A stretch of DNA of 64,000 bases from an uncultured Lachnospiraceae bacterium (lineage in GTDB: Bacteria; Bacillota; Clostridia; Lachnospirales; Lachnospiraceae). The position numbers were made by a program, and so were the translations under genes. The DNA lies in the NCBI GenBank assembly GCA_910578115.1, contig CAJTPO010000004.1, positions 29,539 to 93,538 of the forward strand, in the 5' to 3' direction. Below the pieces are notes generated by a model, which was not told the DNA's origin, ran no database searches, and saw nothing but the letters and a program-made list of their open reading frames with translations. Below, one piece after another: positions 10,825-48,454 of the stretch; position 1 is the first letter of the stretch; every line of letters begins with the position of its first letter.

Positions 10825-10881
10825 ATTTAATTTGTATTTATATAGAGTTACAGAATATAAAGTTTGACTGAGAGGAATTAT

Positions 10882-18700: not shown

Positions 18701-18739
18701 GAGGAAAATTGATAATAGGATATTTATACGGTTTTTGAC

Positions 18740-18835
18740 ATGGATTATGGAAGGATGTTTCAGTATATGCCGTTTGCAATCATATTGTTTACGCTTCTTA
18801 GCAAAGCCATATTATTGTCTGCTTTGTTTAGGTAA
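18740..18835 (+). pseudogene. 31-codon relic of the N-terminus of a YidC-like::TagF-like gene
   Basis: MDYGRMFQYMPFAIILFTLLSKAILLSALFR* matches FAIILFTLLSKIVLLPISLW of the 24861 copy. Confidence 0.4.
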
Positions 18836-24754: not shown

Positions 24755-24860
24755 AAAAGTTTTTTCGAAAATAAAGGTTAAAGATACGTATAATATATCG
24801 GCCAAAGACAAAAAAGAATGAGCTTCTTTTAGACTTCGTTATTTGAGGAGAGGGGAACAG

Positions 24861-25241
24861 ATGCTAATGAATTATTTGTATTCATTTCTTGATTGGGTTA
24901 TGAACAGGTGTTACGAGTTTTGCGGAAGTTATGGATTTGCAATCATACTGTTTACTTTACTGAGTAAAATAGTTTTATTACCAATTTCGTTATGGACATA
25001 TATGAATTCCATAACAATGATCAAGATTCAGCCTGACATAAATTTTCTCAAAGTAAAGTATTATGGGCTGAAGGATACTATAGCAGAAGAACAGGCGAAG
25101 CTGTTTAAGGAGAAGAAATATCATCCGTTGACATCTACTATTCTACCGATTATTCAGTTAGTGATATTTATAGGAGTAGTAGGGGCTGACCGTGCTGGAA
25201 TTGATAATCCTGTAATTGATATGTCTTTTGTAACGGTTGAT
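24861..25241 (+). pseudogene. 5' fragment (~127 codons) of a YidC-like::TagF-like fusion gene, truncated by IS insertion
   Basis: High identity to the first ~125 aa of 33777..35681. DNA homology stops exactly after TTGAT (25237-25241). The remaining ~500 codons are absent. Confidence 0.75.
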
Positions 25242-25405
25242 TGAAACAATCCCACCCCTCCCCAGCAGAGCTGGGGAGAATCGTGTACGCAAGTGGCTAT
25301 GAACGAAGTCCCATAAAAAAGCCTCCGTTGTATAATAAGTGTAGGTCTGACAAACCACACAAAATACAACGGAGGCATCCATGGATAATCAAAGTTTATC
25401 ACATA

Positions 25406-32331: not shown

Positions 32332-32716
32332 TCATATTATCAATTACTGTACCCTGTTATGGGAGAAGATGCGAATGTGAGATTGAAGTAAAGATTCTAT
32401 ATACAAACTGGTAATACAGTAGGGATGGATGAGAGATGGATAAGATATGTAATCTGAATAAGTTTCTAAAGATGCTGTGTAGAGTGGTCTTTGCTTGTTT
32501 TTTTACAATTATGTTCTTTGGGACTGATTTTCAAAATAAGTATAATGCCTACGTGCTTGTTTTTTGTATTTATATCGCTCATAGGATGAATGTAAAGGAT
32601 AAAAGAAAAACTTATAGGGTGCACACTTTAGGCTGCTTTAGCAGCAAACCGAACCTACCGGCTTTAGCCGGTAGTGGTTGAGTTCATTGTTTTTAACAGG
32701 AATTTTTTTCAAAACT

Positions 32717-33776: not shown

Positions 33777-35681
33777 ATGGAACATCTATATAGTGCCTTA
33801 ACATGGGTTATGAATGGCTGCTATAGTCTTTGTAATAATTATGGACTGGCAATCGTACTGTTTACATTTCTAAGTAAAATCGTATTATTACCAGTGTCTC
33901 TTTGGACTTACATGAATTCCATAACGATGATTAAGATTCAGCCGGATATTAATTTATTGAAAATAAAGTATTATGGGCAGAAAGATATCATAGCAGAGGA
34001 ACAGGCAAAATTGTTTAAGGAAAAGAAGTATCATCCTTTGGCGTCAACCATTCCGTTGATTATTCAGTTAGTATTGTTAATGGGCGTAGTAAGCGCTGTA
34101 CGGGCTGGAATAGATAACCCTGTGATTGATATGACTTTTGGACCAATTGATCTGGGATTGATACCGAGCCAGACGGGGGTAGAGTTGATCTGGTCTCCGA
34201 TTGTTGCCGGTGTAGCGGCATGGATATTATGTATTGCACAGAATGCAAGTAACATATTACAGTCTGAACAATCCAAGTATAATAAATATGGTACTATGAT
34301 TCTTTCAGTTGTTTTGTCGTTGTATTTAGGATGGTATGTTCCGATAGGGACTGCTTTTTACTGGGTCTGTAGTAACCTTATGGCAGTTTTGCAGTTATAT
34401 ATTCTTAATTGGATTATTAAGCCAAGAAAATATGTAGACTATGAGAAACTGAATAAGAGCCGTAAGACCTTGGTGGAATTACAGAATATAGGAAAAAAGA
34501 AAAAGGAAAGTTTTTTTTCTGAGAATAAGAAAAGAGAAAGAAGAGATTATAAGAGATTTTTTTCGATAGTTAATAAGCATTTGGTATTTTACTCTGAGAG
34601 TAACGGATTTTATAAGTATTTTAAGGGATTTATAGAATATTTATTAGAGCATACAAATATTACAATTCATTATATTACCAGTGATGCAAATGATGATATT
34701 TTTAAAAAGGAAAAAGAGAATCCACAGATTAAAGCATATTATATAGGCGAGAATAGATTAATCACGCTTATGATGAAAATGGATGCGGATATAGTTGTAA
34801 TGACGATGCCGGATCTTGATAATTTTCATATAAAGCGAAGCTATATAAGGGATGATATTGAGTATATTTATGTTCAGCATGATATGGGTGGAACTAACAT
34901 GGGAATGAGAAAGGGAAGCTTGAATCATTTTGATACGATTTTTTGTTCTGGGCCGCATCAAATATCAGAGATCAGGGAAACGGAAGAAGTATACGATCTG
35001 CCTGCAAAAGAGTTAGTTAAAGTAGGGTACCCGCTTATTGATGAAATTAAAGAAAAATATGATTCTGTAGAACATGGTGAAAATGCGATAAAGAAGATAT
35101 TAATTGCACCATCGTGGCAGGAAGATAATATTCTTGATACTTGTCTGGAGGAGCTTTTGGATGCACTTAAAGACAGAAACTACAATATTATTGTGCGGCC
35201 GCATCCGCAGGAAGTGCGTCTGAAAAGAGAATATATGGAATCTGTTAGACAAAAATATGAATCAGAACATGTAATAGTTCAAACGGACTTTACATCAAAT
35301 AATCCGGTGATGGAAGCTGACATGGTAATCACTGATTGGTCTGGAATAAGCTGGGAATATTCTTTTACAACGAAAAGGCCGGTGTTATTTATTGACACAC
35401 CGATGAAAGTGCTCAATCCTGAATACCAGAGAATAAAAACCGTTCCTTTAAGTGTTCAGTTAAGAGATAAAATTGGTAAAAGCATTAAATTAGATCAACT
35501 AGGAAAAGCAGCAGAATATGTTGAATTTTTGATGAATCATAAAGAAGAATATCAGGAGCAGATTACTAGACTGGCTGAAACGTATATTTTTAATCTTGGG
35601 AGTTCAGCAGAAGCTGGCGCAGATTATATTATCAAAAGTTTACAAGAGAAATTGAGCAGAAAAGGGGAAGGTGAAAAATGA
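33777..35681 (+). CDS. Fusion protein: YidC/Oxa1-like membrane domain + TagB/TagF-type CDP-glycerol glycerophosphotransferase-like domain (copy 2, intact)
   Basis: N-terminus GLAIVLFTFLSKIVLLPVSLW...QPDINLLK...EEQAKLFKEKKYHPL..IPLIIQLVLLMGVV. C-terminus ILIAPSWQEDNILD...IVRPHPQ...MVITDWSGISWEYSF..KRPVLFIDTP. Confidence 0.8.
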   Translation: MEHLYSALTWVMNGCYSLCNNYGLAIVLFTFLSKIVLLPVSLWTYMNSITMIKIQPDINLLKIKYYGQKDIIAEEQAKLFKEKKYHPLASTIPLIIQLVLLMGVVSAVRAGIDNPVIDMTFGPIDLGLIPSQTGVELIWSPIVAGVAAWILCIAQNASNILQSEQSKYNKYGTMILSVVLSLYLGWYVPIGTAFYWVCSNLMAVLQLYILNWIIKPRKYVDYEKLNKSRKTLVELQNIGKKKKESFFSENKKRERRDYKRFFSIVNKHLVFYSESNGFYKYFKGFIEYLLEHTNITIHYITSDANDDIFKKEKENPQIKAYYIGENRLITLMMKMDADIVVMTMPDLDNFHIKRSYIRDDIEYIYVQHDMGGTNMGMRKGSLNHFDTIFCSGPHQISEIRETEEVYDLPAKELVKVGYPLIDEIKEKYDSVEHGENAIKKILIAPSWQEDNILDTCLEELLDALKDRNYNIIVRPHPQEVRLKREYMESVRQKYESEHVIVQTDFTSNNPVMEADMVITDWSGISWEYSFTTKRPVLFIDTPMKVLNPEYQRIKTVPLSVQLRDKIGKSIKLDQLGKAAEYVEFLMNHKEEYQEQITRLAETYIFNLGSSAEAGADYIIKSLQEKLSRKGEGEK

Positions 35682-35941
35682 AAAAAATATCAAAAATGTT
35701 ATTTGTTGTCGGCTTTACATATGGTTGCAGTATGCTGTTGTTTGGACAGGATGTACAGGCATATATTGATCCTTCCGTTATGACTTATGTAATACAGGCA
35801 GTGGCAGGGGTTGTTATTGCAGTTGGCGCAGTGGTAGGTATTTATTTCAGAAGGGCAAAGAAAAAACTAAATGAAAAGCTTGGAATTGATGAAAATAGGA
35901 ACAAAGAAGTAGAGTCAGATGAAATTATTATTAACAAATAA
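35678..35941 (+). CDS. Procoat-like mini membrane protein (87 aa), paralogue of 46321..46578
   Basis: Signal-peptide-like N-terminus ending VQA, then YIDPSVMTYVIQAVAGVVIAVGAVVGIYF (TM) and RRAKKK. ATGA overlap with the upstream gene. Confidence 0.6.
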   Translation: MKKISKMLFVVGFTYGCSMLLFGQDVQAYIDPSVMTYVIQAVAGVVIAVGAVVGIYFRRAKKKLNEKLGIDENRNKEVESDEIIINK

Positions 35942-35971
35942 TGTAGCTTATAGCTGGAAAAGGAATCTAAA

Positions 35972-36697
35972 TTGAAAATATTGATTATGTCTGATATCCA
36001 TGGTAATGAAGAGGCTCTTAATGCTGTACTGAATAAAGCAGCAGACTATGAAATTGATGCTTGTTTTTTACTGGGAGATGTCATAGATTATGGAATGCAT
36101 TCTAATGAAGTAATTGTTAGGTTGAAATCTCTCCCGTACCCGATTATTTGTAACATTCGTGGAAATCATGAGGATGCTGTAATAGCAGATCATTACGATG
36201 CATTTTCATCGGAGCGGGGCAGGCAGAGTGCTAAATATACAAAAAGTATACTGAATGCGGACTCATGGAAGTATATACAAAATAAAATGGCTGCAACTGG
36301 TATGATTGAATTTGAGTGTGCCAATAAAAAGTGTCTGGCAATACATGGGAGTCTTAGAGATCAATATTGGAAAAGTATAGATACTGACAATGACTTTTAT
36401 GATTACTGCGCTTATGATTATGTATTTTCCGGACATTCTCATATGCCGCATTTTGTGGAAAAGTACTATCCGTATGAGGATACCAGAAGAAGAAATAAAA
36501 AGAAGATTATTTTCATCAATCCGGGTTCAGTGGGGCAGCCAAGAAATCATAATCCTATGGCACAATTTGCTGTATTGGATATGCATACAGAGGCTATTTT
36601 GTTTGACAAAGCAGAGTATGATATAGCAAAAGAACAATTGGCTTTTGCTGGGCAGATCGACAAATTTTATAGAGATAGATTGGAGGCAGGTGTGTAA
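35972..36697 (+). CDS. Metallophosphoesterase (YfcE/MJ0936-like)
   Basis: ILIMSDIHGN...LGDVIDYG...GNHE...GHSH. TTG start with RBS AAAAGGAA. Confidence 0.8.
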   Translation: MKILIMSDIHGNEEALNAVLNKAADYEIDACFLLGDVIDYGMHSNEVIVRLKSLPYPIICNIRGNHEDAVIADHYDAFSSERGRQSAKYTKSILNADSWKYIQNKMAATGMIEFECANKKCLAIHGSLRDQYWKSIDTDNDFYDYCAYDYVFSGHSHMPHFVEKYYPYEDTRRRNKKKIIFINPGSVGQPRNHNPMAQFAVLDMHTEAILFDKAEYDIAKEQLAFAGQIDKFYRDRLEAGV

Positions 36698-37686
36698 TGA
36701 ATTTATATGTTATCAGTGGAGTTGCTGGAATGACGGGAAATGAACTTGCCAGGAGGCTGACTGCATCAGGGGATAGAGTAATTGGATTTGATAATTTTTT
36801 TGCTTCTTCCGTAAGGACGATTGAGGATGTTCTATCTAACACAAATTTTGTGTTTTATGAATATGATTTAAATAACGAAGCGCAGATGGAAAGTTTGAAA
36901 CAGGAGATCTTTAAACATAAGAAAAGCTGTGAAAAGCTTATTTATATAAATTGTGCGGCAGTTGTACACACTGAACATTTCTATTATGTAAATCGTACTT
37001 TTGAAACGAATGTGATTGGTATGAAAAAATTTTTGGAACAGGCAATAGAAGTAGAAGCTAATGTTTATATTAATTGTTCTACATCAGAAGTGTATTCTAT
37101 GAATTCATGGAATAGTGACGGTGGAGTGTCCGAATCTGATTATATTACAATGGCTAATGCAGAACACAGTCAGAGGACAAGTTACGCTACTGGTAAATTA
37201 CTTACAGAGTTTTTTATGAAGGATGCGGTGGCAGAACATAAGATTAAGGGATGTTCTATTCGCTTTGCTAATGTTTACAGCAAGAATGAATTGTATCCGA
37301 AACATATTATTCCGCATATCATTAATGAATTAAGAAATAAAGGGTGTGTGGAGTTGTTGGAAAATTCCAAAGTAAATAAAAGGACTTTTTTGCATAACGA
37401 GGATAGTTGTGCCGCGGTGATAGCCTTAGCGGAAACAGACTCGGCGTTAGATGGGTCGGTATATAATGTGGCAACTGACGAGGAGATATCGATTATTGAT
37501 CTGGTAAAGCTTTGTGGTGAAAAATTAGGTATTACTGATCCGGAGATTATGTTTGAGGGATATCGGGAATCAGATCCGGAGAGAAGAGTGTTGAGTACTC
37601 AAAAGATCAGAACCAGAACAAACTGGATACCAAAGATAACCCTGAGTCAGGGAATAGAAATGTGTGTTAAGGAGTTAGAACATTGA
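36697..37686 (+). CDS. NAD-dependent epimerase/dehydratase (extended SDR)
   Basis: GVAGMTGNELARRL (GxxGxxG), SYATGK (YxxxK). Confidence 0.85.
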   Translation: MNLYVISGVAGMTGNELARRLTASGDRVIGFDNFFASSVRTIEDVLSNTNFVFYEYDLNNEAQMESLKQEIFKHKKSCEKLIYINCAAVVHTEHFYYVNRTFETNVIGMKKFLEQAIEVEANVYINCSTSEVYSMNSWNSDGGVSESDYITMANAEHSQRTSYATGKLLTEFFMKDAVAEHKIKGCSIRFANVYSKNELYPKHIIPHIINELRNKGCVELLENSKVNKRTFLHNEDSCAAVIALAETDSALDGSVYNVATDEEISIIDLVKLCGEKLGITDPEIMFEGYRESDPERRVLSTQKIRTRTNWIPKITLSQGIEMCVKELEH

Positions 37687-38429
37687 GAATTATGATTATT
37701 ACAGTTGCAGGGGTGGCAAGTAGATTCAGTCAGTCTATAGGTTGTCCCTGCTTGAAGTGTCTATACTATAAAAATGATATAAAAGAGTCTTTATTGTACC
37801 ACATACTCAGCCAGAATTCAGAGATTGATAAATATGTGATTGTTGGGGGATTTAAATTTGAGGAACTGGAAAGGAGCATTCATCAGTATTTCTCCCAGTT
37901 TTATGATCGCATCATTTTAGTGAAAAATGAAATGTATGAAAAATATGGATCAGGGTACAGTCTATATTTGGGATTGAATGCGATCAAGGATTTAAATTAT
38001 GATGAGCTGGTTTTTGCAGAGGGAGATTTGTGGGTTGATGAAGAGAGCTTTAGACGTGTATGGGAGACCCCCGGAAATGTGATTACATGTAACAATGAGG
38101 CGATTTTAGCAAGTAAGTCCGTTGCATTTTATTATGATCGTGAGTATAGAATTCACTATATATTTGATACTACTCATTCTCTACTGGAAATCAGAGAACC
38201 CTTTCAGGGAATTTTTAATTCGGGACAAATTTGGAAGTTTTCTCAAAAGGATTGTGTTCAAAAAGCTATGGCTGGGCTTACGCAGGAAGAATGGCAGCAG
38301 ACCAATCTTGGTTTTATTCAGAGATATTTTGGATGTCTTAATCAGGAAGGTTATAAAATTGTTAATTTTCAGAAGTGGTTAAATTGTAATACGAAATTTG
38401 ATTTTGATAAAATTGAAGGAATGAAATAG
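37683..38429 (+). CDS. Nucleotidyltransferase-fold protein (MobA/LicC-like NTP transferase), candidate cytidylyl/nucleotidylyl transferase
   Basis: N-terminal MIITVAGVASRF resembles the GxGxR(F/L) NTP-transferase loop. The rest is not recognisable by eye. Confidence 0.5.
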   Translation: MRIMIITVAGVASRFSQSIGCPCLKCLYYKNDIKESLLYHILSQNSEIDKYVIVGGFKFEELERSIHQYFSQFYDRIILVKNEMYEKYGSGYSLYLGLNAIKDLNYDELVFAEGDLWVDEESFRRVWETPGNVITCNNEAILASKSVAFYYDREYRIHYIFDTTHSLLEIREPFQGIFNSGQIWKFSQKDCVQKAMAGLTQEEWQQTNLGFIQRYFGCLNQEGYKIVNFQKWLNCNTKFDFDKIEGMK

Positions 38430-38433
38430 TCAA

Positions 38434-39555
38434 ATGAAAATCGGAATTATTACGTACGAAAGCTTATATTGTAATTTTACAAATTATGGAACTGTATTGC
38501 AGGCATGGGCACTTTTTAAAGTGGTATCCGGTCTTGACATTCTGTATGAGCCGGTTTTGATTGATTATTGTCCTGATATTATGCATGATAAAGATCCACT
38601 TAATCCAATGAAGAATATGTGGGATATGGATTATGAAACGAGAAAAATGTGTGAGCTGTCATTGCCATCTATTAAAATAAATTTTGAAAAGATTAGAAAA
38701 TTCTATTTTGAAAAAATCAGGATGTCAGATCGAAGTTATACATCAGCTACAATTAACAAGGTGGTGGATGAAGGGATTTCTAAATTTATTTGTGGAAGTG
38801 ATTCGATATGGGATATTACGGAGTTTGGAATGGATAGAGGTTTTTTTGCAGATTATCCGATAATGCAGGGAAATTCTATTGCCTATGCGCCAAGCTTTCA
38901 AGATTCTTTTTCGGAGTATTCTCAGGAGGAAAGGAGTCGACTCATCAAATTATTAAATAATTTTTCGGCTGTTGGTATACGTGATGAGGAACCTGTTAGT
39001 GTTCTGTGTAATTATGTGAACAGCGAAGTAAAAAGGGTGGTCGATCCTACATTATTATTGAAGAACAGTGATTTTGATGAGATTGTTGCAGAGAAACAGG
39101 AAAGTGAACGGTATCTGCTATATTATTCTCGAAGATATAATGAAGCGATGGAGCGTTTTGCAGTTGAGACTGCAAAGGCCAGAGGACTGAAAGTAATAGA
39201 GATTAGTTTGCGTCATGAGAATTATGAAAGACACAGAATGTTTTATGAAGCAGGAGTAGAGGAATTTTTATCACTTGTCAAATATGCGGATTGTGTAATC
39301 ACGAATTCATTTCATTGTTTGATTTTTGCCCTTCATTTTGAAAAAGATTTTTATGCTTTTACAAGAGAGCACTGTAACAATAAGATTTGTGAATTGCTTG
39401 CCAGATTAAATTTGGAAGGGAGACTGCTCAAAGATGGCTGTGAAAAAACAAAAAGTAAAATTGACTATTTGGATATAAAAGACCGTTTAGAAAAGGAACG
39501 TTTAGAGTCTTTGGAGTTTTTGGAGAGACAACTTAAAGATATTTGTAGAGGGTGA
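38434..39555 (+). CDS. Polysaccharide pyruvyl transferase family protein (copy 2)
   Basis: IITYESLYCNFTNYGTVLQAWAL...ICGSDSIWD...IAYAPSF...TNSFH. Confidence 0.8.
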   Translation: MKIGIITYESLYCNFTNYGTVLQAWALFKVVSGLDILYEPVLIDYCPDIMHDKDPLNPMKNMWDMDYETRKMCELSLPSIKINFEKIRKFYFEKIRMSDRSYTSATINKVVDEGISKFICGSDSIWDITEFGMDRGFFADYPIMQGNSIAYAPSFQDSFSEYSQEERSRLIKLLNNFSAVGIRDEEPVSVLCNYVNSEVKRVVDPTLLLKNSDFDEIVAEKQESERYLLYYSRRYNEAMERFAVETAKARGLKVIEISLRHENYERHRMFYEAGVEEFLSLVKYADCVITNSFHCLIFALHFEKDFYAFTREHCNNKICELLARLNLEGRLLKDGCEKTKSKIDYLDIKDRLEKERLESLEFLERQLKDICRG

Positions 39556-39559
39556 TAAA

Positions 39560-40772
39560 ATGAAGTCTGTGTACAATGATATTAAGAAACAATGTTTTGG
39601 ATGTGAAATATGTGTGGGGGGGTGTATGTCCCCATAAAGCAATCACTATGGTCGAAGATGAGGAAGGATTTAGATATCCGGAAATTGATCAGGAATTGTG
39701 CATAGATTGCGGTGCATGCAGGCGGATTTGTCCATATATTAATATACCAGAGAAAAATCAGCATAAACCATATGTGTTTGGTGGATATCATAAAAGTTCA
39801 GGGATTAAAGATCAAAGTACTTCGGGTGGAGCATTTTCAGCGATAGCTGAGGTGTTTTGTAATGAAAATTATGTTGTTTTTGGAGCGGCTGTTGAAGGTC
39901 TGAGAGTTTACCACACATATACTGAGGATAAAAAAGAGCTTTATAGGTTTAGAAGATCTAAGTATGTCCAAAGTTTTATGGGAGATTCCTATAAAAGAGC
40001 GATGCAGTTTTTGAAAGACGGAAAGAAGGTTCTTTTTTCAGGAACACCATGTCAAATTGCAGCATTAAATAATTATATTGTCCCCGCGGCGTTAAAAGAA
40101 AATTTATACACAATAGAAGTAGTATGTGAGGGGTTTCCGTCCCCACTTCTAATGAGAAAGTATTTTACGCTACTCAAGGAGCGTCACCATTCATCGGTTA
40201 GAGAAGTAGATTACAGATATAAAGACAGAAACCGGTGGGATTTCGAAGTTATGAAAATAACGTTTGAGAATGGTAAAGTTATGAAAAAGGATAGGTGGTT
40301 TAATCCTTTTTGGATTTTCTGGTCGGAACGTGTTATGGGAAGACCCTCATGTGACGAGTGTCCGTTTAGAACGACAGACAGGGTGGCAGATATTACGTTA
40401 GGTGATTTATGGGGAGTGCATAAATATTGTCCGGAATTATATGGAAATAATGGTGGCAGTTCTTTGGTCGTATGTAACAGTGAGAAGGGAGAAAAACTAT
40501 TTAAACAGGCAGAAAAGCTATTATACGGGCATGAACTGGCATATGAGGATGCATTAAAATATCAAAGACCTATGAGAGTGATCGTTCCGGCAAATGAAAA
40601 AAGAGAAATGTTCATGCATGATCTTAAGGCGTTGGATTATACGTCATTATGTAAGAAATGGAAGCCAAGAACGTCCTTGAAGGTATTGTTCTCTAAATAT
40701 ATATGGGGAAGTAATCGACAGGTTGTTAATTTTTGGAAAGTGAAGTCATATTTTATTAAGCCTAAGACTTAA
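39560..40772 (+). pseudogene. FrhB-like Fe-S flavoprotein (copy 2), frameshifted at a G7 tract near codon 20 (phase-OFF or a sequencing error)
   Basis: ATG 39560 gives MKSVYNDIKKQCFGCEICVGGCMSP*. After the G7 tract the paralogous sequence (VCPHKAITMVEDEEGFRYP...) continues in the +2 frame to 40772. Confidence 0.75.
39616..39622 (+). repeat. Homopolymeric G7 tract at the frameshift point
   Basis: tgtgtGGGGGGGtgtatg. Confidence 0.95.
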
Positions 40773-40870
40773 TTCTCCGGATAGAGTATTAAAAGGATGC
40801 GGTAAGTATTTCAATGACCCAAAGTATAAAGTGCTTTTCTCGTCTATCTTTTTAGGTGAGAGGTGACAAA

Positions 40871-42079
40871 ATGAATTCTGTTTATGATAATACCAAAAGT
40901 CAGTGCTTTGGGTGTGAAATTTGTGTAAAGGTGTGCCCTTATTCAGCAATATTGATGCAGGAAGATGAGGAAGGATTCAGATATCCTCAAATTAATGAAG
41001 AAAAATGTAAAGATTGTGGAGCATGTAAACGTATTTGTCCGTATATCAATCCACCGCAGAAAAATCAAAGAAAACCTTATGTATATGGTGGATATCATAA
41101 AAATAGTGTAATCAGAGATGAGAGTACTTCCGGTGGAGCATTTTCTGCAATAGTGGATGTATTTTGTGATAAAAATTATGTTATTTTCGGAGCAACAGCG
41201 AAAGGATTAGAAATCCATCATGAGTATATTGAAGATAAGAAAGAATTGGGGATATTTAGAAAATCCAAATATGCGCAAAGTTCCATGGGTAATTCTTATT
41301 TGTATGCAGCCAAGTTTTTGGAATCAGGGAAGAAAGTACTTTTTTCAGGTACACCCTGCCAAATTGCGGCTTTGAAAAATTACATTAAGCTGGAGAAGCT
41401 GAAAGAAAATTTGTTGACGGTTGAGGTTGTATGTGAGGGTTTTCCGTCTCCGCTATTGTTAAGAAAGTATTGTGCAATGCTCAAAGAACGTTATCATTCG
41501 TCGGTGAAAGAATTGGATTACAGGTATAAAGATAAGAAGCGCTGGGATTTTCAGGTCATGAAAATTTCATTTGAAAATTGCAGGACAATAAAGGAGGACA
41601 GGTGGTTTAGCCCCTTTTGGATATTCTGGTCGGAGCGCTTAATGAGTAGACCGGCATGTATTGAATGTCCATTTAGAACAACAGATCGGTTAGCGGATAT
41701 TACATTAGGTGATTTGTGGGGAGTGCATAAATATTGTCCGGAATTATATGGAAATAATGGTGGCAGTTCTTTGGTCGTATGTAACAGTGAGAAGGGAGAA
41801 AAACTATTTAAGCAGGCAGAAAAGTTATTATACGGACATGAACTGGCATATGAAGATGCATTAAAATATCAAAGACCTATGAGGGTGATCGTTCCGGCTA
41901 ATGAAAAAAGAGATATGTTCATGGATGATCTTCGTACATTAGATTATAAGGCGCTCTGTAGGAAGTGGAAGCCGAAGACATCCTGGAAGGTATTGTTCTC
42001 AAAATATATAGTGGGAAGTAATCGTCAGATTGTAAATTTGTGGAAACTAAAAACCATTTTTAAAAGGAGAAAAAGATGA
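40871..42079 (+). CDS. FrhB-like Fe-S flavoprotein with a 2x[4Fe-4S] domain (copy 3, intact)
   Basis: CFGCEICVKVCP...CKDCGACKRICP...STSGGAFSA...GTPCQ...ADITLGDLWG. ATG 40871. Confidence 0.8.
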   Translation: MNSVYDNTKSQCFGCEICVKVCPYSAILMQEDEEGFRYPQINEEKCKDCGACKRICPYINPPQKNQRKPYVYGGYHKNSVIRDESTSGGAFSAIVDVFCDKNYVIFGATAKGLEIHHEYIEDKKELGIFRKSKYAQSSMGNSYLYAAKFLESGKKVLFSGTPCQIAALKNYIKLEKLKENLLTVEVVCEGFPSPLLLRKYCAMLKERYHSSVKELDYRYKDKKRWDFQVMKISFENCRTIKEDRWFSPFWIFWSERLMSRPACIECPFRTTDRLADITLGDLWGVHKYCPELYGNNGGSSLVVCNSEKGEKLFKQAEKLLYGHELAYEDALKYQRPMRVIVPANEKRDMFMDDLRTLDYKALCRKWKPKTSWKVLFSKYIVGSNRQIVNLWKLKTIFKRRKR

Positions 42080-43254
42080 CAACATTAAATGAGAAACTGA
42101 ATATTCTGAGAGAAGAATTAAAGAATCGAAAAGCCAGAATTATGATCATTGGGCTGGGCAGTGTGGGCAATTATCTGCTGGATTATCTCATGTCTGCAAG
42201 AGATGAGGAAGTAGAAATCTGTGTAGTTGGACGTAATGGAATAAAGATGCAGTCTGATGTGAATATCGTGAGAGTTGCGTCAATGATCCGGGGGCAGAAT
42301 CGGAGCAGGGTTACAGTCATAGATGGGGTGGATTTGAATCACGTATCAGACATAGAATCAGCAATCAGAGCGTATGGGCCGGATATTATTGTGAACAGCA
42401 GTCGTGCATATTCCGGACTGAAATACGGAAGTATTTCCTGGAAAAATATCCGAGCATATGGAATTTGGACACCATTGTCGATCAAGTATACCAAAAATAT
42501 CATGGAAGCATATGAACAGGTTGGCTCTAAAGCAATCGTGATCAATACGTCCTATTCCGATGCCGTGATCCCATGGCTGAAATCTGCTGGAAAGGCCTAT
42601 CCGGATTTCGGAAGCGGCAATATCAATCATTTGATTCCGAGATTTCAATTTGCGATTGCAGAGAAGATGGGAGTTGATGATTACTGGAATATTGATATTA
42701 CATTTGCTGTGGCTCATTTCCATGATGTAGTGATCAGCAAAGAAGGACAGACCGAAGGGGTGGACATGCTGATGGATGTTCGCTATAAGGGACAGAAGGT
42801 TAATGTAGATGTTAACGCTATAGCTGCTGGCTGCTGTATTCCGATGCCGGTGGATGCAAAGCGTAACATGATGAATGCGTCCAGCAATTTTGAGATAATT
42901 CAGGCAATTCTTACTGCTGTGCGGGATCATAAGAAAGTCAAACTGCATTGTCCGGGTGTTTTTGGCGAGATTGGCGGTTATCCCATAGTGATTGATGGTT
43001 CACAGGAGTTGGTTGAGGCGGCAATTTGCGAGGATTACTTTGACCTTGATACGATGAGAAGGAAAAATCGGGAGTCTATCTATTTAGATGGGATTGAGAA
43101 CGTAGCGGATGGTGTTCTTACATATACTGATGAATTACTTGAGAAAGTCAGAAAGGCATTTGGAGTTGATCTGGTGAAAAACATTGCTTTTAGTGAAATA
43201 GACCAGGTTGCTGAATTTATTGTGAAAGAGATCATTGATAAAAATGCAGGCTGA
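42076..43254 (+). CDS. Rossmann-fold oxidoreductase of uncertain family (saccharopine-dehydrogenase-like N-terminus)
   Basis: RIMIIGLGSVGNYLLDYL (GxGxxG)...EICVVGRN...PDIIVNSS. Overlaps the upstream stop and lies 10 nt upstream of the PEP mutase gene. Confidence 0.45.
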   Translation: MTTLNEKLNILREELKNRKARIMIIGLGSVGNYLLDYLMSARDEEVEICVVGRNGIKMQSDVNIVRVASMIRGQNRSRVTVIDGVDLNHVSDIESAIRAYGPDIIVNSSRAYSGLKYGSISWKNIRAYGIWTPLSIKYTKNIMEAYEQVGSKAIVINTSYSDAVIPWLKSAGKAYPDFGSGNINHLIPRFQFAIAEKMGVDDYWNIDITFAVAHFHDVVISKEGQTEGVDMLMDVRYKGQKVNVDVNAIAAGCCIPMPVDAKRNMMNASSNFEIIQAILTAVRDHKKVKLHCPGVFGEIGGYPIVIDGSQELVEAAICEDYFDLDTMRRKNRESIYLDGIENVADGVLTYTDELLEKVRKAFGVDLVKNIAFSEIDQVAEFIVKEIIDKNAG

Positions 43255-43263
43255 GAGAAAGGC

Positions 43264-44571
43264 ATGGTTATTAAAATGAAAAAAGTATATACATGTTTCT
43301 GTACCAGTGTGATCCATGAAGGACATCTGAATATTATTAAAGAGGCGGAAAAATATGGGGAAGTGATCGTTGGTGTGCTTAGTGACGAGTCTATGGTGCG
43401 CTTTAATAAATTTCCCGCAGTTTCGTTAGAAGAACGTATGGAAATGGTACAGAATATCGAGGGAGTTAAACGTGTTATTGTCCAGAAGGATATTATGTAT
43501 GACGCAGTGATCAGGGAACTGCAGCCGGATTATGTGATTCACGGAGATAATTGGAAAAATGGTCCGATGCAGGCAATCAGGAACAATGTGGCATTGCTGC
43601 TGAGTCAATATGGAGGACAGATCATTGAAGTACCATATACCTATAATGAGCGCGTTAAGCATGCCGATGCATGCATAAAAGAAAAACTGGCTATGCCGGA
43701 ATACAGAAGGAAGAGGCTTAAACAGCTTTTGGGGCTGTGCCCGATTGTTAAAGCAATGGAAGTGCATAGTGGCCTGACCGGATTAATCGTTGAGAAAACG
43801 ATAATTGAGAACAATGGCGCGCTTGACCAGTTTGATGCTATGTGGATAAGCTCCCTGTGTGATTCAACAGCTAAGGGGAAACCTGACATTGAACTGGTTG
43901 ATATGACATCTCGGTTTCGGACGATTGATGATGTTATGGAGGTAACGACAAAACCGATTATTTTTGATGGAGATACAGGCGGGTTAACGGAGCATTTTGT
44001 ATATACGGTTCGTTCTTTAGAGCGAATGGGGGTGTCGGCCGTCATTATAGAAGATAAAACGGGCCTGAAAAAGAATTCTCTTTTTGGTAATGAGGTAGTG
44101 CAGGAATTGGATTCGATTGAACATTTTAGCGAGAAGATCAGAGCGGCGAAGCAGGTTCAGCTGACGGATGACTTTATGATTATTGCGCGTTTGGAAGCAT
44201 TAATTCTTGAGAAGGGACAGGAAGAGGCATTAAGGCGTGCGTGCGCATTTGTGGAAGCGGGTGCGGATGGAATTATGATCCACAGCAGAAAGAAAGCACC
44301 GGATGAGATATTTGAATTTTGTGATGCGTTCCGCAGTATGGATAAGGAGACGCCGATTGTTGTCGTGCCGACGTCCTATAATTCTGTGACGGAACAGGAG
44401 TTGATAAGGCATGGTATTAATATTGTCATTTATGCGAATCAGCTTACCAGAAGTGCATTTCCGGCAATGGAGCAGACTGCCAAGGACATTTTGAGACATC
44501 ATCGTGCGAAGGAAGTAGATGAAAAGCTTATGCCGATCAAGGATATTATATCGTTGATTGATGAATTGTAA
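43264..44571 (+). CDS. aepX: Bifunctional cytidylyltransferase-like domain :: phosphoenolpyruvate phosphomutase
   Basis: N-terminus VYTCFCTSVIHEGHLNIIKEA is an HxGH cytidylyltransferase motif. C-terminus MEVHSGL...IIFDGDTG...SAVIIEDKTGLKKNSL...IIARLEA...GADGIMIHS is PEP mutase/isocitrate-lyase superfamily with the EDK..KKNS signature. Confidence 0.9.
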   Translation: MVIKMKKVYTCFCTSVIHEGHLNIIKEAEKYGEVIVGVLSDESMVRFNKFPAVSLEERMEMVQNIEGVKRVIVQKDIMYDAVIRELQPDYVIHGDNWKNGPMQAIRNNVALLLSQYGGQIIEVPYTYNERVKHADACIKEKLAMPEYRRKRLKQLLGLCPIVKAMEVHSGLTGLIVEKTIIENNGALDQFDAMWISSLCDSTAKGKPDIELVDMTSRFRTIDDVMEVTTKPIIFDGDTGGLTEHFVYTVRSLERMGVSAVIIEDKTGLKKNSLFGNEVVQELDSIEHFSEKIRAAKQVQLTDDFMIIARLEALILEKGQEEALRRACAFVEAGADGIMIHSRKKAPDEIFEFCDAFRSMDKETPIVVVPTSYNSVTEQELIRHGINIVIYANQLTRSAFPAMEQTAKDILRHHRAKEVDEKLMPIKDIISLIDEL

Positions 44572-44621
44572 CATGTCGATGATTGCTATGTGGCAGTTTT
44601 GACTATGAGGGAGATAAAAGA

Positions 44622-45746
44622 ATGAAAGTAGAGAAGCTTTTAGAAATCATTGATTCGGATTTTTATACGGGAGTTCCAGATTCTCAGCTTAAAGCATTGT
44701 GCGATTATCTGATGCAGCACTATGGTATAGATTCAAAAAGGCATTTAATTGCGGCAAACGAAGGTAACTGCACAGCGATTGCAGCAGGGTACCATCTGGC
44801 CACCGGAAAAGTACCTGTAGTTTATATGCAAAACAGCGGGGAAGGAAATATTATTAATCCTGTTACTTCTTTGCTGAATGATAAAGTATACGCAATCCCG
44901 TGTGTTTTTATTATTGGATGGCGCGGAGAACCGGGAATACATGACGAGCCGCAACATATTTATCAAGGGGAAATAACGGTTAAACTTTTGAATGATTTGG
45001 ATATCCAGGCCTTTGTGGTTGGAAAGGAAACAACGGACGAAGAAGTTATAGATGCGATGAATACATTTCGTGTGGCACTCGAAACAGGCAAAAGTGTTGC
45101 TTTCGTAATTCGCAAAGGTGCACTCTCTTATGATGGTAAGGTTGTATATAAGAATGAGAACAGGATGTTAAGAGAGGATATTATTAAGCATATTACAAAG
45201 GTAACGGATCATGATCCTGTCATATCCACGACAGGAAAAGCAAGTCGTGAATTGTATGAGATACGTGAATCAGCCGGTCAGGGGCATCAGTATGATTTTT
45301 TGACAGTTGGTTCCATGGGACATAGTTCTTCTATCGCTCTGGGGATTGCGGTCAATAAGCCGGAAACAAAAATCTGGTGTATAGATGGAGATGGAGCCGC
45401 TCTGATGCATATGGGGGCGATGGCGGTGATTGGGGCGAATACTCCCGATAATCTGGTGCATATCATTATCAACAATGGTTCCCATGAGACAGTTGGTGGA
45501 ATGCCCACTGTAGCAGGAAGTGTGGATTTAACTGGGATTGCCAAAGCATGCGGATATCCTTATGCTGTAAGCGTTGATAGTTTTGAAGAGTTGGACAGAG
45601 AATTGAAAGATGCAAAACAAAGAAACAGACTTAGTATGATTGAGGTGAAATGTGCTATTGGTGCACGTGAAAATTTGGGTAGACCAAAATCTACAGCTGG
45701 AGAGAATAAACGGAATTTCATGGAATATGTAGAAAAGTTACATTAG
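44622..45746 (+). CDS. aepY: Phosphonopyruvate decarboxylase (ThDP-dependent)
   Basis: FYTGVPDSQLKALCDYL...GNCTAIAAGY...IDGDGAALMHMG...NNGSHETVGG. ATG 44622 with RBS GAGGGAG. Confidence 0.9.
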   Translation: MKVEKLLEIIDSDFYTGVPDSQLKALCDYLMQHYGIDSKRHLIAANEGNCTAIAAGYHLATGKVPVVYMQNSGEGNIINPVTSLLNDKVYAIPCVFIIGWRGEPGIHDEPQHIYQGEITVKLLNDLDIQAFVVGKETTDEEVIDAMNTFRVALETGKSVAFVIRKGALSYDGKVVYKNENRMLREDIIKHITKVTDHDPVISTTGKASRELYEIRESAGQGHQYDFLTVGSMGHSSSIALGIAVNKPETKIWCIDGDGAALMHMGAMAVIGANTPDNLVHIIINNGSHETVGGMPTVAGSVDLTGIAKACGYPYAVSVDSFEELDRELKDAKQRNRLSMIEVKCAIGARENLGRPKSTAGENKRNFMEYVEKLH

Positions 45747-45770
45747 CAAGTGATTTAAAGAGGTTATGTG

Positions 45771-46286
45771 ATGCGGCATTTTGACGGAGTAGAATGGAAA
45801 TATAGAATTGTAAAAGTTGTTTGGATTTCGTTGATTGTTGCGTTTGCTTACTATATTTCCAGAAACTGGTATCAAATTTCATTAATTCGTGGTGATTCCA
45901 TGAGTCCATCGTATCACAATATGCAGTTTGTCATGCTTGACAGACATACAAGGGATTATAGTTATGGTGATGTAATTACTTTTCAATGTGAAAATCTGAA
46001 TACTGTATTAGTAAAACGTATTGTTGCATGTCCCGAGGATCAGGTGGTTATCAAAAATGGGATACTGTATGTAAACGATGCGGTCAGTGTAGTTTTTCCG
46101 GAAAAGTTCATTTTTACATATGCTGGAGTTGCGAAGGAGTATGTGAATTTGGAAGAAAACCAGTATTTTGTGATTGGTGATAATCTGGAAAAGAGCAAAG
46201 ATAGCCGATATGCGGAAGTTGGGATTGTATATGGAGATGACATTTTAGGAAGGATACTTCCGTGGAAATCGGTATGTAGTTTGTAA
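45771..46286 (+). CDS. Type I signal peptidase (S26, Ser/Lys dyad)
   Basis: TM anchor, then RGDSMSPSY (Ser box), LVKRIVACPED (Lys box), GDNLEKSKDSRY. Confidence 0.85.
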   Translation: MRHFDGVEWKYRIVKVVWISLIVAFAYYISRNWYQISLIRGDSMSPSYHNMQFVMLDRHTRDYSYGDVITFQCENLNTVLVKRIVACPEDQVVIKNGILYVNDAVSVVFPEKFIFTYAGVAKEYVNLEENQYFVIGDNLEKSKDSRYAEVGIVYGDDILGRILPWKSVCSL

Positions 46287-46320
46287 ATTCGGAGTCTTAT
46301 TTGTAAAGGAGATTAAAGAT

Positions 46321-46578
46321 ATGAAGAGATTAACATTACAGGCACTCAAATTTACTTATTTTGCCGGATGTTTCTGGTACTTATTTACTATACCGGTGCA
46401 GGCGTATATTGATCCGTCGGCAGTTACGTACGTTGTTCAGATGGTAGCGGGCGTTTTAATTGCACTTGGCGCGGTCCTTGCGGTTTTCAGACATAAAATA
46501 TTTGCATTCTTTCGAAAGAACAAAAGTACAAAAGAAGGGCAGGGAACTACAATTGAGTTTAAGGATGTAGATGATTAA
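46321..46578 (+). CDS. Procoat-like mini membrane protein (85 aa), paralogue of 35678..35941
   Basis: ...FTIPVQA then YIDPSAVTYVVQMVAGVLIALGAVLAVF (TM) and RHKIFAFFRKNK. Confidence 0.6.
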   Translation: MKRLTLQALKFTYFAGCFWYLFTIPVQAYIDPSAVTYVVQMVAGVLIALGAVLAVFRHKIFAFFRKNKSTKEGQGTTIEFKDVDD

Positions 46579-46588
46579 GGAGTGATTT

Positions 46589-48454
46589 ATGAATATCGTG
46601 ATAGACACTGTGGTTAATGGATTGCTTTGGCTCATCAATTTATGTTATGGATTTTGTAATAATTACTGGGTGGCAATTTTGTTATTCACATTTTTGACTA
46701 AGGTAATTTTGCTGCCTTTGTCAGTATGGGTTCAGAAGAATTCTATTAAAACTGTGAAGATGGCACCTGAGATGAATCGTATTAAAACAGTTTATTTTGG
46801 AAATCAGGAGGTCATTTCGGAAGAGCAGTATAAATTATTCAAAAAAGAAAAGTATAGTCCTTTTGCGGATTTAATTCCTTTGTTTGTTCAGCTTGCTTTG
46901 TTGATGGGAGTGGTAGAAGCTGTTAAGCAGGGCACTGACCTGACAGATATTCCGGTCAAGACTGGCGGAGTTACTTTGTTGATTCCGCTACTTGCAGCGT
47001 TATCTGCCTTTTTCATGTGTTTTGTGCAGAATAAAATTAATGTACTGCAGTCAGAGCAGGGGCATTTAAATCAGTATGGTACAATGATTTTTTCTGTTAC
47101 GCTTTCTCTCTATTTAGGTTTTTTTGTGTCGATTGGAGTTGGTTTCTATTGGATCTGCAGTAATCTTTTTTCTATTATTCAATTGGTTTTATTGAATATA
47201 TGGATTAATCCAAAGGATTATATAGATTATGAGGCCTTAAAGAGGAGTAAAGAAGAATTAAATAAAGTGCAGAAGATGATGTCAGTCAGGCGGAAGGCGG
47301 ATAAGAGGAATCCATATCGTTCTAAAGGCAAGGCTGATTATAAGCGTTTTCTCAGAACTTCGGACAAGAAGATTGTTTTCTATTCTGAGAAAAACGGGTT
47401 CTATAAATATTATAAGGACATTATTGAAGAGATAATTCGCAGGACGAATATTGTGATTCATTATATTACAAGTGATCCGGAAGATGAAGTCTTTCAGATG
47501 GAGAGTGATCAGTTTAAGCCGTATTATATTAATGAGACTCGATTGATCGTTTTAATGATGAAACTGGAGACGGAAATTATGGTCATGACTACTCCGGATT
47601 TGGAAAATTATCAACTTAAACGGTCTTATGTACAGAAGGATATAGAGTATATTTATGTGCCACATGATGTTAACAGTGTAAACTTGGCATTCCATAAAGA
47701 GGCATTGGATCATTTTGACACAATTTTTACTTCGGGACCGAAGAACACTGCTGAAATAATGGAGCGTGAGAAAAAATATGGACTGCCTGCTAAGAACTTA
47801 GTAGAATGGGGATCATCTATTATTGATGACATGACAGTTGCATATGAACAAATGGCAGGAGATCATGCACAAGAGAGACAGTGTGCAATTATGATTGCCC
47901 CTTCGTGGCAGAAGGATAATATTTTAGATTCGTGTATAGAGGAGATGCTTGATCAACTGGTACAAACTTCATATCATATTATAGTGCGGCCACATCCTCA
48001 GTATGTACGTCATTTTGAAGCTAAAATTGATGCATTGGCAGCAAAATATAAAGGGTATGATGTTGTTTTTCAGAAAGATTTTTCATCTACTGAATCAGTA
48101 TATATGTCGGATTTGTTGATTACGGATTGGTCAAGTATTTCATTTGAATATGCTTTTTCTACATTGAAGCCGGTATTATTTATAGATACGCCAATGAAGA
48201 TTTTGAATCCCGACTATCAGGAATTGGAAACTGTTCCGATTGATTTAGAACTTCGCAATAAAGTGGGTATTTCAATTGCACAGGATAGTGTTGGTGACTT
48301 GATTGTGGAGACTGTTGATAAACTTTTAAATGAAATACAGTTTGCACCGGAGTCAATGCAGAAATTAAAAGAAAAATATAGTTATAATATTGGAGAAAGC
48401 GGTAAGGCAGGAGCGAAGTATATTATTGAACGTCTTGTACAGCGTAAAAGATAG
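46589..48454 (+). CDS. Fusion protein: YidC/Oxa1-like membrane domain + TagB/TagF-like transferase domain (copy 3, intact)
   Basis: VAILLFTFLTKVILLPLSVW...EEQYKLFKKEKYSP...LFVQLALLMGVV. IMIAPSWQKDNILD...IVRPHPQ...LLITDWSSISFEYAF..KPVLFIDTP. Confidence 0.8.
   Translation: MNIVIDTVVNGLLWLINLCYGFCNNYWVAILLFTFLTKVILLPLSVWVQKNSIKTVKMAPEMNRIKTVYFGNQEVISEEQYKLFKKEKYSPFADLIPLFVQLALLMGVVEAVKQGTDLTDIPVKTGGVTLLIPLLAALSAFFMCFVQNKINVLQSEQGHLNQYGTMIFSVTLSLYLGFFVSIGVGFYWICSNLFSIIQLVLLNIWINPKDYIDYEALKRSKEELNKVQKMMSVRRKADKRNPYRSKGKADYKRFLRTSDKKIVFYSEKNGFYKYYKDIIEEIIRRTNIVIHYITSDPEDEVFQMESDQFKPYYINETRLIVLMMKLETEIMVMTTPDLENYQLKRSYVQKDIEYIYVPHDVNSVNLAFHKEALDHFDTIFTSGPKNTAEIMEREKKYGLPAKNLVEWGSSIIDDMTVAYEQMAGDHAQERQCAIMIAPSWQKDNILDSCIEEMLDQLVQTSYHIIVRPHPQYVRHFEAKIDALAAKYKGYDVVFQKDFSSTESVYMSDLLITDWSSISFEYAFSTLKPVLFIDTPMKILNPDYQELETVPIDLELRNKVGISIAQDSVGDLIVETVDKLLNEIQFAPESMQKLKEKYSYNIGESGKAGAKYIIERLVQRKR

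Follow-up and report, generated by a model that had tools for sequence, protein, structure and literature searches.

We analysed a 64,000-nt window of DNA from an uncultured Lachnospiraceae bacterium (contig CAJTPO010000004.1, positions 29,539-93,538; coordinates below are those of the window), and our interest is in two of its genes, which join a YidC-like membrane domain to a TagF-like enzyme, and in the small proteins that travel with them. The window is a wall-polysaccharide locus, with a Wzt-type ABC exporter and GtrII-like genes among its open reading frames (ORFs). Fusion A (33777..35681, forward strand; 634 aa) consists of a YidC-like core at residues ~20-215, a basic linker and a TagF-like GT-B domain at residues ~255-625, while fusion B (46589..48454, forward strand; 621 aa) has the same YidC-like core and TagF-like GT-B domain and is 48% identical to fusion A over its full length. 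An earlier description made from the letters alone (below, the sequence-only reading) had placed two intact ORFs of about 625 aa here, and these are borne out; the motifs that it quoted, IAPSWQ.DNILD, IVRPHPQ, ITDWS., PVLFIDTP and, in the small neighbouring proteins, VQA/YIDPS, are all found in the translations. From comparisons of sequence and gene order, the fusions appear as members of a widespread, conserved four-part module for envelope decoration, composed of putative head-group activation genes, a predicted cytoplasmic TagF-like GT-B enzyme, a YidC-family domain together with a microprotein (the mini), and an LtaS-like candidate extracellular transferase. This module most likely would decorate the cell surface with phosphonate or phospho-alcohol groups. 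The comparison set was of about 100 related loci, L and P numbers being the labels of relative loci and proteins; counts of minis and of sulfatase-family partners are based on the 65 loci with enough flanking sequence.

The N-terminal part of both fusions is matched from end to end, and above the cut-off, by the hidden Markov model (HMM) PF02096 (60KD_IMP; model positions 1-162 of 163), with 93.9 bits for fusion A and 98.2 bits for fusion B vs a cut-off of 35. TIGR03592 gives 85.2 bits for fusion A and 78.1 bits for fusion B, the latter just below its cut-off of 84.3. In a phmmer search of the Protein Data Bank (PDB), B. halodurans YidC2 (3WO7) is matched by residues 12-211 of fusion B, and a PDB sequence search with the whole of fusion B returned YidC entries only. 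The AlphaFold2 (AF2) model of fusion B (pLDDT 82.8, pTM 0.63) reproduces the core of five transmembrane (TM) helices and the cytoplasmic helical hairpin, with helices at 26-40, 42-68/73-86 (the hairpin), 91-115, 127-150, 159-179 and 182-206, and Foldseek aligns this part with 3WO6 (target TM-score 0.70, root-mean-square deviation (rmsd) 4.0), 3WO7 (0.66, rmsd 3.2) and 6AL2 (rmsd 3.4). The proposal that the N-terminal part is a YidC/Oxa1 core is thus confirmed by HMM and by structure (0.66-0.70 with 3WO6/3WO7). The remark that the groove Arg is replaced by Lys agrees with the alignments: the groove Arg (R72 of BhYidC2, 3WO7) aligns with Lys in fusion B, and K38 is invariant in 17 of the 17 diverse fusions of one alignment, with the positive charge retained. 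Across 74 distinct fusions the YidC core has a mean pairwise identity of 0.605 vs 0.572 for the TagF-like domain, and 25% vs 22% of its columns are at least 95% conserved; the invariant intramembrane polar residues are K38, Q101, Q147/N148, Q154, E156/Q157, S191/N192 and Q198. Some fusions are longer. The 821-aa variants (P0333; L086 8001-10466) carry an extra N-terminal TM segment and a domain of ~185 aa ahead of the YidC core, which is predicted to be extracytoplasmic and recalls the P1 domain of Gram-negative YidC; such an outside domain is consistent with an N-out start of the YidC core.

The C-terminal part had been read as TagF-like, and the structural comparison agrees. The top Foldseek matches of this part of fusion B are 8QOY, a Cps multienzyme (TagF-like capsule polymerase; 3.8e-10), TagF 3L7K (7.4e-10) and TarL 8VA1 (1.5e-8), all of which rank above generic GT-B enzymes, and PF04464 (Glyphos_transf) scores 43.5 bits in fusion B vs a cut-off of 22.1. 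A profile of the C-terminal domain run against the PDB has TarL as its sole match (E = 1.7e-4), and the invariant RPHPQ aligns with the KMHPF motif of TarL. A second invariant His, H359 of fusion B (in Y.Y.PH), lies 110 residues upstream of RPHPQ; no tool aligned H359 with H300 of TarL. In the known enzymes, H444 and H584 of TagF and H300 of TarL are catalytic or donor-binding His, and TagF, TarL and TagB work on lipid-linked polymers at the cytoplasmic face. What would such a domain transfer here? Several of the donors predicted from neighbouring genes are non-polymerisable, so that a single-transfer enzyme is likely. A classical poly(glycerol-phosphate) polymerase is unlikely, since the adjacent pathways yield 2-aminoethylphosphonate (AEP), phosphocholine-like and other donors. 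Among the genes beside the fusions we saw neither CDP-glycerol (TagD-only) nor CDP-ribitol genes.

Each fusion has a mini at its side. Mini A (35678..35941, forward strand; 87 aa) shares an ATGA overlap with fusion A, and its leader, ..GQDVQA, precedes YIDPSVMTYVIQAVAGVVIAVGAVV (which holds the TM segment), a basic stretch and the conserved tail KLGIDENRNKEVESDEII. Mini B (46321..46578, forward strand; 85 aa) ends 10 nt upstream of fusion B with an acidic C-terminal stretch; its leader, ..FTIPVQA, precedes YIDPSAVTYVVQMVAGVLIALGAVLAV (TM) and then FRHKIFAFFRK...IEFKDVDD. Pfam and NCBIfam scans of both minis gave nothing significant, and a motif scan of all ORFs of the fetched loci found no long protein with a YxDPG/S-TM segment. 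An alignment of 66 distinct minis has the invariant core Y-I-D-P-S-(A/V)-x-T-Y-x-I-Q-x-x-A-G-x-x-I-A-x-G-A, followed by a basic stretch. Among the relatives collected, Tyr, Asp and Pro are invariant and are followed by Ser, Gly or Asn, giving Y-[ILM]-D-P-[SGN]. Leaders terminate in A-x-A or a similar sequence (VQA, AHA, ANA, GRA) directly before the Y of YIDPS. In leaderless minis the ORF starts 3-11 residues ahead of YIDPS, as in MLLYIDPS, MNLYIDPS and MLIYIDPS, and such starts, together with the strongly basic segment past the TM helix, point to an N-out/C-in topology; the mature mini is thus predicted to be an N-out single-pass protein. The procoat-like design that the sequence-only reading had proposed therefore fits the minis with leaders, the leaderless ones being Pf3-coat-like instead.

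The mini is an obligate partner of the fusion. It is carried by 64 of the 65 loci, as the synteny survey of ~100 loci showed, in line with the earlier expectation that the mini-ORFs would be conserved with the fusion. It is found upstream-adjacent to the fusion in 28 loci, downstream-adjacent in 20 and one gene away in 16; altogether it lies downstream in 36 of the 64, including the 16 at one-gene distance, and in L168 it is on the opposite strand. There are two types of tail, ..KLGIDENRNKEVESDDII and ..FRHKIFAFFKK..IEFKDVDD. The A-type tail pairs with an A-clade fusion in 43 of 44 cases and the B-type tail with a B-clade fusion in 37 of 38. Each fusion clade occurs beside either head-group pathway, and since the type of tail tracks the clade rather than the pathway, we conclude that the mini co-evolves with the fusion. 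Clusters of the microprotein family at 90% identity number at least 3764, and every one bears the name 'hypothetical'.

Between the two fusions lies a signal peptidase I (SPase) gene (45768/45771..46286, forward strand; PF10502 1.3e-24; TIGR02227 93.8 bits vs 47) with Ser/Lys boxes. The catalytic boxes GDSMSP (Ser), VKRI (Lys) and GDN...S.DS are found in this protein and in 12 other full-length co-encoded SPases, and the earlier assignment to a Ser/Lys peptidase is upheld, the enzyme being active-looking as judged from its intact boxes. We reach a different conclusion about which mini it would serve. A locally encoded SPase is present in 19 fetched loci besides the window (20 places), and every time the mini has an A-type leader (..LLFGANAxA/Y, the slash marking the junction); in about 35 loci whose minis have B-type leaders, and in about 33 whose minis have no leader, there is no SPase within roughly 5-8 kb. 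This leader/SPase correlation supports the idea that an SPase may process a mini, and it led us to reject the SPase as a general member of the module, since it is confined to loci with A-type leaders. In L085, which has a single fusion, the operon runs fusion - mini - Metallophos - ... - DUF6564 - Sacchrp_dh-like - PntC/Ppm - Ppd - SPase. Its start, its end and its conserved genes are as in window 33777..46286, where extra genes lie between. Because L085 ends with Ppd and SPase, and because SPases occur only with A-type leaders, the window SPase is most likely the last gene of operon A, where it would process the leader of mini A; it would then not be the companion of the adjacent mini B, to which it had been dedicated. 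The B pair (mini B and fusion B) is best read as having been appended after operon A.

Absent from the sequence-only reading, and the most informative partner of all, is an LtaS-like protein of the sulfatase family. In the window it is a membrane protein encoded at 17021..18700 (forward strand; PF00884 26.8 bits vs a cut-off of 25), whose nearest solved relative is LtaP 4UOP, a lipoteichoic acid primase, at a weak E = 0.004; the partner in L081 matches LtaS 2W5R, again weakly (E = 0.002). We predict that the product of 17021..18700 is the module's extracellular transferase, which is probable. A sulfatase gene or domain accompanies the fusion in 50 of the 65 loci. Moreover, the parts can be joined in a single chain. 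L111 has YidC-TagF-Sulfatase in one protein of 1236 aa, P0379 has Sulfatase-YidC-TagF in 1545 aa with a leaderless mini after it, and L129 has Sulfatase-YidC in 1190 aa, its TagF-like part being visible only as tblastn similarity to the fusion, with no Pfam match. In L172 the parts are separate adjacent genes: Sulfatase - PntC/Ppm - Ppd - Fe-ADH - TagF-like (374 aa) - mini (70 aa; ..GNANA/YLDPNSGG..) - YidC-like (224 aa).

The head-group genes of the window, PntC-Ppm and Ppd, are located between fusions A and B. A cytidylyltransferase::phosphoenolpyruvate mutase of the PntC-Ppm type (43264..44571, forward strand; PF01467 + PF13714), a fusion family that has been described (PMC6697681), is followed by the phosphonopyruvate decarboxylase Ppd, a thiamine pyrophosphate enzyme (44583..45746, forward strand; PF02775 + PF02776). 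Ppd comes directly after Ppm in L085 and L172 also, and one gene after it in B-type loci. In all B-type relatives the set PhnW - PntC/Ppm - LicC-like - Ppd (the AEP route) adjoins the module, and other head-group neighbours are an NTP_transferase::aminotransferase (603 aa) and a choline-kinase::NTP_transferase. The modules thus adjoin genes predicted to make head groups activated with cytidine monophosphate (CMP) or diphosphate (CDP), namely a phosphonate in the window and AEP, phosphocholine-like or amino-alcohol phosphate groups in relatives.

The A-type operon of the window has no PhnW-type AEP transaminase, and it holds a conserved set of three further genes, all on the forward strand: a metallophosphoesterase (35972..36697), directly past mini A and in the same place in L085 and L139; a DUF6564 protein (37683..38429; PF20202 5.8e-91), of unassigned role, which is part of this A-type phosphonate operon and is found in L085 and L139 also; and a saccharopine-dehydrogenase-like NAD(P) protein (42076..43254), which lies ahead of Ppm in L085, while the sequence of L139 stops inside its copy. 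The saccharopine-dehydrogenase-like protein probably tailors the phosphonate. The lack of PhnW in the A-type operons of the window, L085 and L139 suggests a phosphonate head group other than plain AEP. Further head groups are hinted at elsewhere. In L081-L084 (12498-14575), the most abundant A-type locus, the NTP_transferase::aminotransferase gene is followed by an ornithine-cyclodeaminase-like and an octopine-dehydrogenase-like gene, a pair that hints at an opine-like (N-carboxyalkyl) head group. On the Gram-negative contig L168 (2384-12784), a PPDK-like kinase, a C26 amidotransferase and an NTP_transferase come before a TagF-like gene that stands alone, and a mini and a sulfatase lie close by, a set that we presume to resemble the phosphoramidate (MeOPN) donor pathway of C. 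jejuni.

The fusions are not rare. Each has more than 6800 relatives among clusters at 90% identity, with top matches all of 620-640 aa, and one variant, P0305, is present on about 1000 contigs. The named relatives are from metagenome-assembled genomes of Lachnospiraceae, with one from Huintestinicola, and their sole annotation is 'YidC/Oxa1 family membrane protein insertase'. When 1.84 billion representatives were searched with a profile, 944 clusters (50% identity) came up at E<=1e-30, which include proteins of 1190-1545 aa and, as stand-alone TagF-like relatives, many proteins of ~380 aa that match the TagF-like half only. Literature searches on YidC with glycerophosphotransferase or TagF, and on phosphonate in Lachnospiraceae, found no description of the fusion; the sequence-only reading knew of no characterised YidC::TagF fusion, and our full-text searches turned up none. 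While the parts belong to known families, for their combination and for the microprotein family we found no described counterpart.

The window also holds degenerate copies of the fusion gene. A truncated A-type copy, now a pseudogene (24867..25241, forward strand, in the ORF 24843..25244), preserves the YidC-like domain over residues 1-125, at 77% identity to fusion A. It lies ~200 nt upstream of a group II intron (25443..27200, forward strand; RF02005 134.8 bits at 25443..25664), whose reverse transcriptase and maturase ORFs are frameshifted, leaving decayed RVT_1/GIIM fragments at 25910..27200; no domain V/VI match at gathering score was found in it. The sequence-only reading had called this copy truncated by an insertion sequence (IS). 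The truncated copy is there, but IS-mediated truncation is rejected, since the neighbouring element is a group II intron (RF02005, reverse transcriptase and maturase ORFs) and not an IS. The relic that had been noted near 18740 is present as well, though tiny: two short segments of a fusion-gene N-terminus at 18735..18817 (forward strand, ~80 nt in two frames; tblastn E = 0.007), with the fragments ..FLTWIMEGC.. and ..AIILFTLLSKAILL... It sits directly after the sulfatase-family gene 17021..18700, which fits the sulfatase-then-fusion order of relatives.

Some features of the wider window may be recorded here. All long ORFs are on the forward strand. The GC skew is about +0.3 over most of the window and goes down to about 0.1 at 54-58 kb, and the G+C content, about 0.33-0.41 in the glycan locus, climbs to 0.45-0.54 past 52 kb. 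GtrA-like ORFs, called by sequence inspection, are also present, and they and the GtrII-like genes are other extracytoplasmic polymer-decoration systems in the window. A 483-aa protein (10864-12315), whose C-terminal half consists of tandem coiled-coil-like repeats (..K(D/E)xYIxEL..TI..Y..), is encoded between the Wzt ABC transporter gene and the gene for a 1034-aa GT2 protein. About 600 nt upstream of fusion A is a 162-aa ORF (32678-33166) whose match to the DUF6020 model is confined to positions 330-474 of 604 and which is probably a gene fragment. There are three FrhB/FdhB-like Fe-S proteins (30695-31876, 39576-40772 and 40856-42079); one polysaccharide pyruvyl transferase (29587-30711) precedes the first and another (38434-39555) precedes the adjacent pair, whose identical C-terminal ~70 aa suggest a recent duplication or gene conversion.

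How might a cytoplasmic enzyme, a membrane domain with a microprotein and an extracellular enzyme work together? Their arrangement in three layers (cytoplasm, membrane, outside) suggests a relay, in which a lipid-linked head group would be made inside, carried across and moved to a wall polymer. For concreteness, the TagF-like domain would move the phospho(no) head group from its nucleotide donor to a hydroxyl of a membrane lipid in the inner leaflet. The acceptor would likely be diacylglycerol or a glycolipid, with CMP as the leaving group as in the chemistry of TagF on a glycerol hydroxyl; TagF chemistry, with its CMP release and alcohol acceptor, fits transfer onto either. The conserved hydrophilic groove of the YidC-like domain and the microprotein, with its polar outer half (YIDPS..TY..Q), would then bring the charged head group to the outer leaflet, where the LtaS-like enzyme would hand it to the wall glycopolymer and the lipid would be regenerated. 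LtaS, GacH and EptA-type enzymes draw phospho-head groups from lipid donors. The microprotein itself would be inserted N-out in the fashion of Pf3 coat; in A-type operons a procoat-like leader would be cut between A and Y by the co-encoded SPase. As for precedents, scrambling of glycerophospholipids has been described for E. coli YidC in vitro and for other Oxa1 members in simulations (PMC11047089), and gene clusters that combine Ppm with sulfatases have previously been placed under 'Group 4 phosphonolipids' (PMC8942020). The comparisons show the identities of the domains, the make-up of the module, its split and triple-fused variants, the leader/SPase correlation and the co-evolution of mini and fusion; the nature of the lipid acceptor and of the final acceptor, a translocating YidC-like part and the inserter of the mini are what we infer, and to the relay as a whole we would give somewhat less than an even chance. 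The most far-reaching reading, that the YidC/Oxa1 domain and the Pf3-coat-like microprotein form a dedicated trans-bilayer conduit for a lipid- or microprotein-linked phospho(no) head group, coupling the TagF-like and LtaS-like transferases, is a tentative proposal that we put well short of even.

Several observations weigh against this picture. The usual substrates of TagF-family enzymes are polyprenyl-linked polymers in the cytoplasm, and the Wzm/Wzt-type exporter of the window could carry a polyprenyl-linked product. No sulfatase is present within the available sequence of 15 of the 65 loci. PF04464 recognises fusion B, but a scan of fusion A gave nothing at E<=1; in the precomputed table the domain is assigned to the listed relatives of fusion A (65-86% identical), its own cluster representative excepted. 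Where the fusions have a positive groove residue, the split homologue L172 has Asn and L173 has Ser, so that canonical electrostatic capture is not a constant feature and the chemistry of the groove varies. Finally, the minis of L168 and L174/175 (..AHA/YLDPGNGG.., ..AYA/YIDPGT.. and ..AHA/YMDPGTG..) adjoin stand-alone TagF-like genes and sulfatases in loci that have no YidC-like Pfam match. A dedicated YidC-like part is therefore not universal, and the presence of minis with stand-alone TagF-like enzymes suggests that the role of the mini goes beyond that of a substrate for the fused YidC domain.

Which other explanations could account for the module? The YidC-like domain might, as one option of the sequence-only reading has it, solely insert the microprotein, which would be a structural or regulatory subunit of the TagF-like/LtaS-like machinery, with neither lipid nor head group passing the groove. 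The mini does have the architecture of YidC-only substrates (a short acidic N-out tail, one TM helix and a basic C-tail), its linkage to the fusion is tight and the two co-evolve, SPase co-occurs with the leader-bearing A-type minis, and the YidC core is well conserved. However, where minis stand beside stand-alone TagF-like genes with no YidC-like gene near, the housekeeping YidC suffices; a private insertase for one protein of 60 aa, covalently fused to an enzyme, would be unprecedented and costly, and triple fusions with the extracellular transferase would be left unexplained. We therefore consider it rather unlikely that insertion is the domain's whole task, although insertion is compatible with the relay and does not exclude it. 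One may instead suppose, with another option of the sequence-only reading, that the YidC-like part does no transport at all and tethers a TagF-type transferase that caps or primes a polyprenyl-linked wall polymer for export by Wzm/Wzt, the mini and the sulfatase acting elsewhere. Such a role would be in keeping with the structural neighbours TagF/TarL, enzymes of lipid-linked polymers at the cytoplasmic face, with the Wzt-type ABC transporter within the window and with the ABC2_membrane and ABC_tran genes in L170. On the other hand, the YidC part is no less conserved than the catalytic part, and the polar residues within its membrane segments do not vary; in L172 the YidC-like domain is a separate gene that neighbours those for the TagF-like enzyme and the mini; all but one of the loci counted have a mini; and triple fusions include the extracellular sulfatase domain. 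The conservation of the core, the split form of L172 and the triple fusions together argue against a decayed anchor or passive tether, and pure anchoring appears to us decidedly unlikely.

The microprotein could also take a more direct part in the chemistry, with the invariant Tyr or the Ser of YIDPS covalently carrying the head group from YidC::TagF to the LtaS-like nucleophile. The precedent is DltX, a membrane microprotein whose extracellular end has an invariant Tyr and which, within a heterotrimeric complex, passes D-Ala from DltB on to DltD (PMC12148441). Tyr, Asp and Pro do not vary in the collected minis, and the mini travels with both the cytoplasmic and the extracellular transferases. 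However, the YIDPS motif lies outside and the active site of the TagF-like GT-B domain in the cytoplasm, and in distant minis the Ser is Gly or Asn, leaving Tyr as the sole candidate carrier. To our knowledge, moreover, YidC has no tunnel like the funnel of MBOAT proteins, its groove being closed to the outside (3WO6). We regard a covalent shuttle as very unlikely. A last thought is that insertion of the mini monitors or controls translation of the downstream YidC-like gene, much as MifM precedes yidC2 in B. subtilis; the B-type mini, 10 nt upstream of the fusion and with an acidic end, would suit this. Since gene order and strand vary, with the mini downstream of the fusion in over half of the loci and on the opposite strand in L168, and since the invariant parts are the TM helix and the outer motif and not the C-terminal end, we reject a MifM-like leader peptide as exceedingly improbable.

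If such a trans-bilayer conduit is real, it would be an unrecognised export route for small anionic or zwitterionic decorations to Gram-positive wall polymers, and the first physiological use of the 'scramblase' activity of insertases in a biosynthetic pathway. YidC-family proteins are seen as protein insertases, and their lipid scrambling has so far been observed only in vitro and in simulations (PMC11047089); the fusion family offers a concrete system in which to ask whether, in vivo, lipids or head groups make use of the groove. There is a substantial chance, though one well short of even, of a new role for the YidC-like domain in translocating something other than protein. The delivery of phosphonates such as AEP to the surface after CMP activation is an acknowledged gap (PMC6697681, PMC8942020), to which the module is a candidate answer in Lachnospiraceae that are abundant in the human gut. 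The microprotein family would gain a function, and the current database name of the fusions is misleading.

It remains to compare the module with known systems. With Gram-positive YidC/Oxa1 proteins (SpoIIIJ/YidC2, 3WO6/3WO7) the fusions share PF02096 over its full length, the five-TM core and hairpin of the AF2 model, a positive groove charge and the conserved YW..SN motif in the last TM helix. They differ in having no lipoprotein signal or N-terminal TM segment, the 821-aa variants excepted, in a groove Lys instead of Arg (Asn or Ser in split and high-GC relatives), in a 370-aa GT-B enzyme in place of the C-terminal ribosome-binding tail, and in the position of their genes in glycopolymer loci instead of the rnpA-yidC-jag locus. 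With TagF, TarL, TagB and the capsule polymerases (3L7K, 8VA1, 8QOY) they have in common the GT-B fold, the PF04464 match of fusion B, the correspondence of RPHPQ to KMHPF and an expected release of CMP, whereas sequence similarity is very low, TarL being the one profile match, the domain is fused to an integral membrane domain, and the neighbouring genes would make AEP, other phosphonates, phosphocholine-like or amino-alcohol-phosphate donors.

The minis resemble M13 procoat and Pf3 coat in their short acidic N-out segment, single TM helix and basic C-tail. Leader-bearing forms, which end in A-x-A and co-occur with a signal peptidase I, parallel procoat and leader peptidase, while leaderless forms mimic Pf3 coat. 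Unlike these phage proteins, the minis are cellular, have an invariant YxDP motif and a conserved cytoplasmic tail, and are always linked to a TagF-like enzyme, even where a YidC-like gene is not nearby. The sulfatase-family partner is comparable to LtaS, LtaP and GacH in its N-terminal TM helices and its sulfatase-family ectodomain, with LtaP and LtaS as its nearest solved relatives, and GacH too is encoded in a wall-polysaccharide locus. Its similarity to its solved relatives is weak, however (E about 0.002-0.004); in some loci it forms one protein with YidC::TagF, and its donor would be a dedicated lipid made by the TagF-like enzyme and not bulk phosphatidylglycerol.

As a whole, the module is comparable to DltB-DltX-DltD, where a donor in the cytoplasm, a membrane protein, a microprotein whose invariant Tyr is at the outer face and an extracellular transferase work as a unit on teichoic acids (PMC12148441). 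All the protein families differ, however (YidC-like/TagF-like/LtaS-like vs MBOAT/SGNH), as does the chemistry, phosphoryl or phosphonyl vs acyl transfer, and the motif of the mini is at the N-terminal end of the mature protein, that of DltX at the C-terminal end. It is like GtrA/GtrB/GtrII, too, in its cytoplasmic loading of a lipid, its small membrane component for flipping and its outer decorating enzyme, but it would handle a phospho(no) head group instead of a sugar, and it would do so with unrelated protein families.

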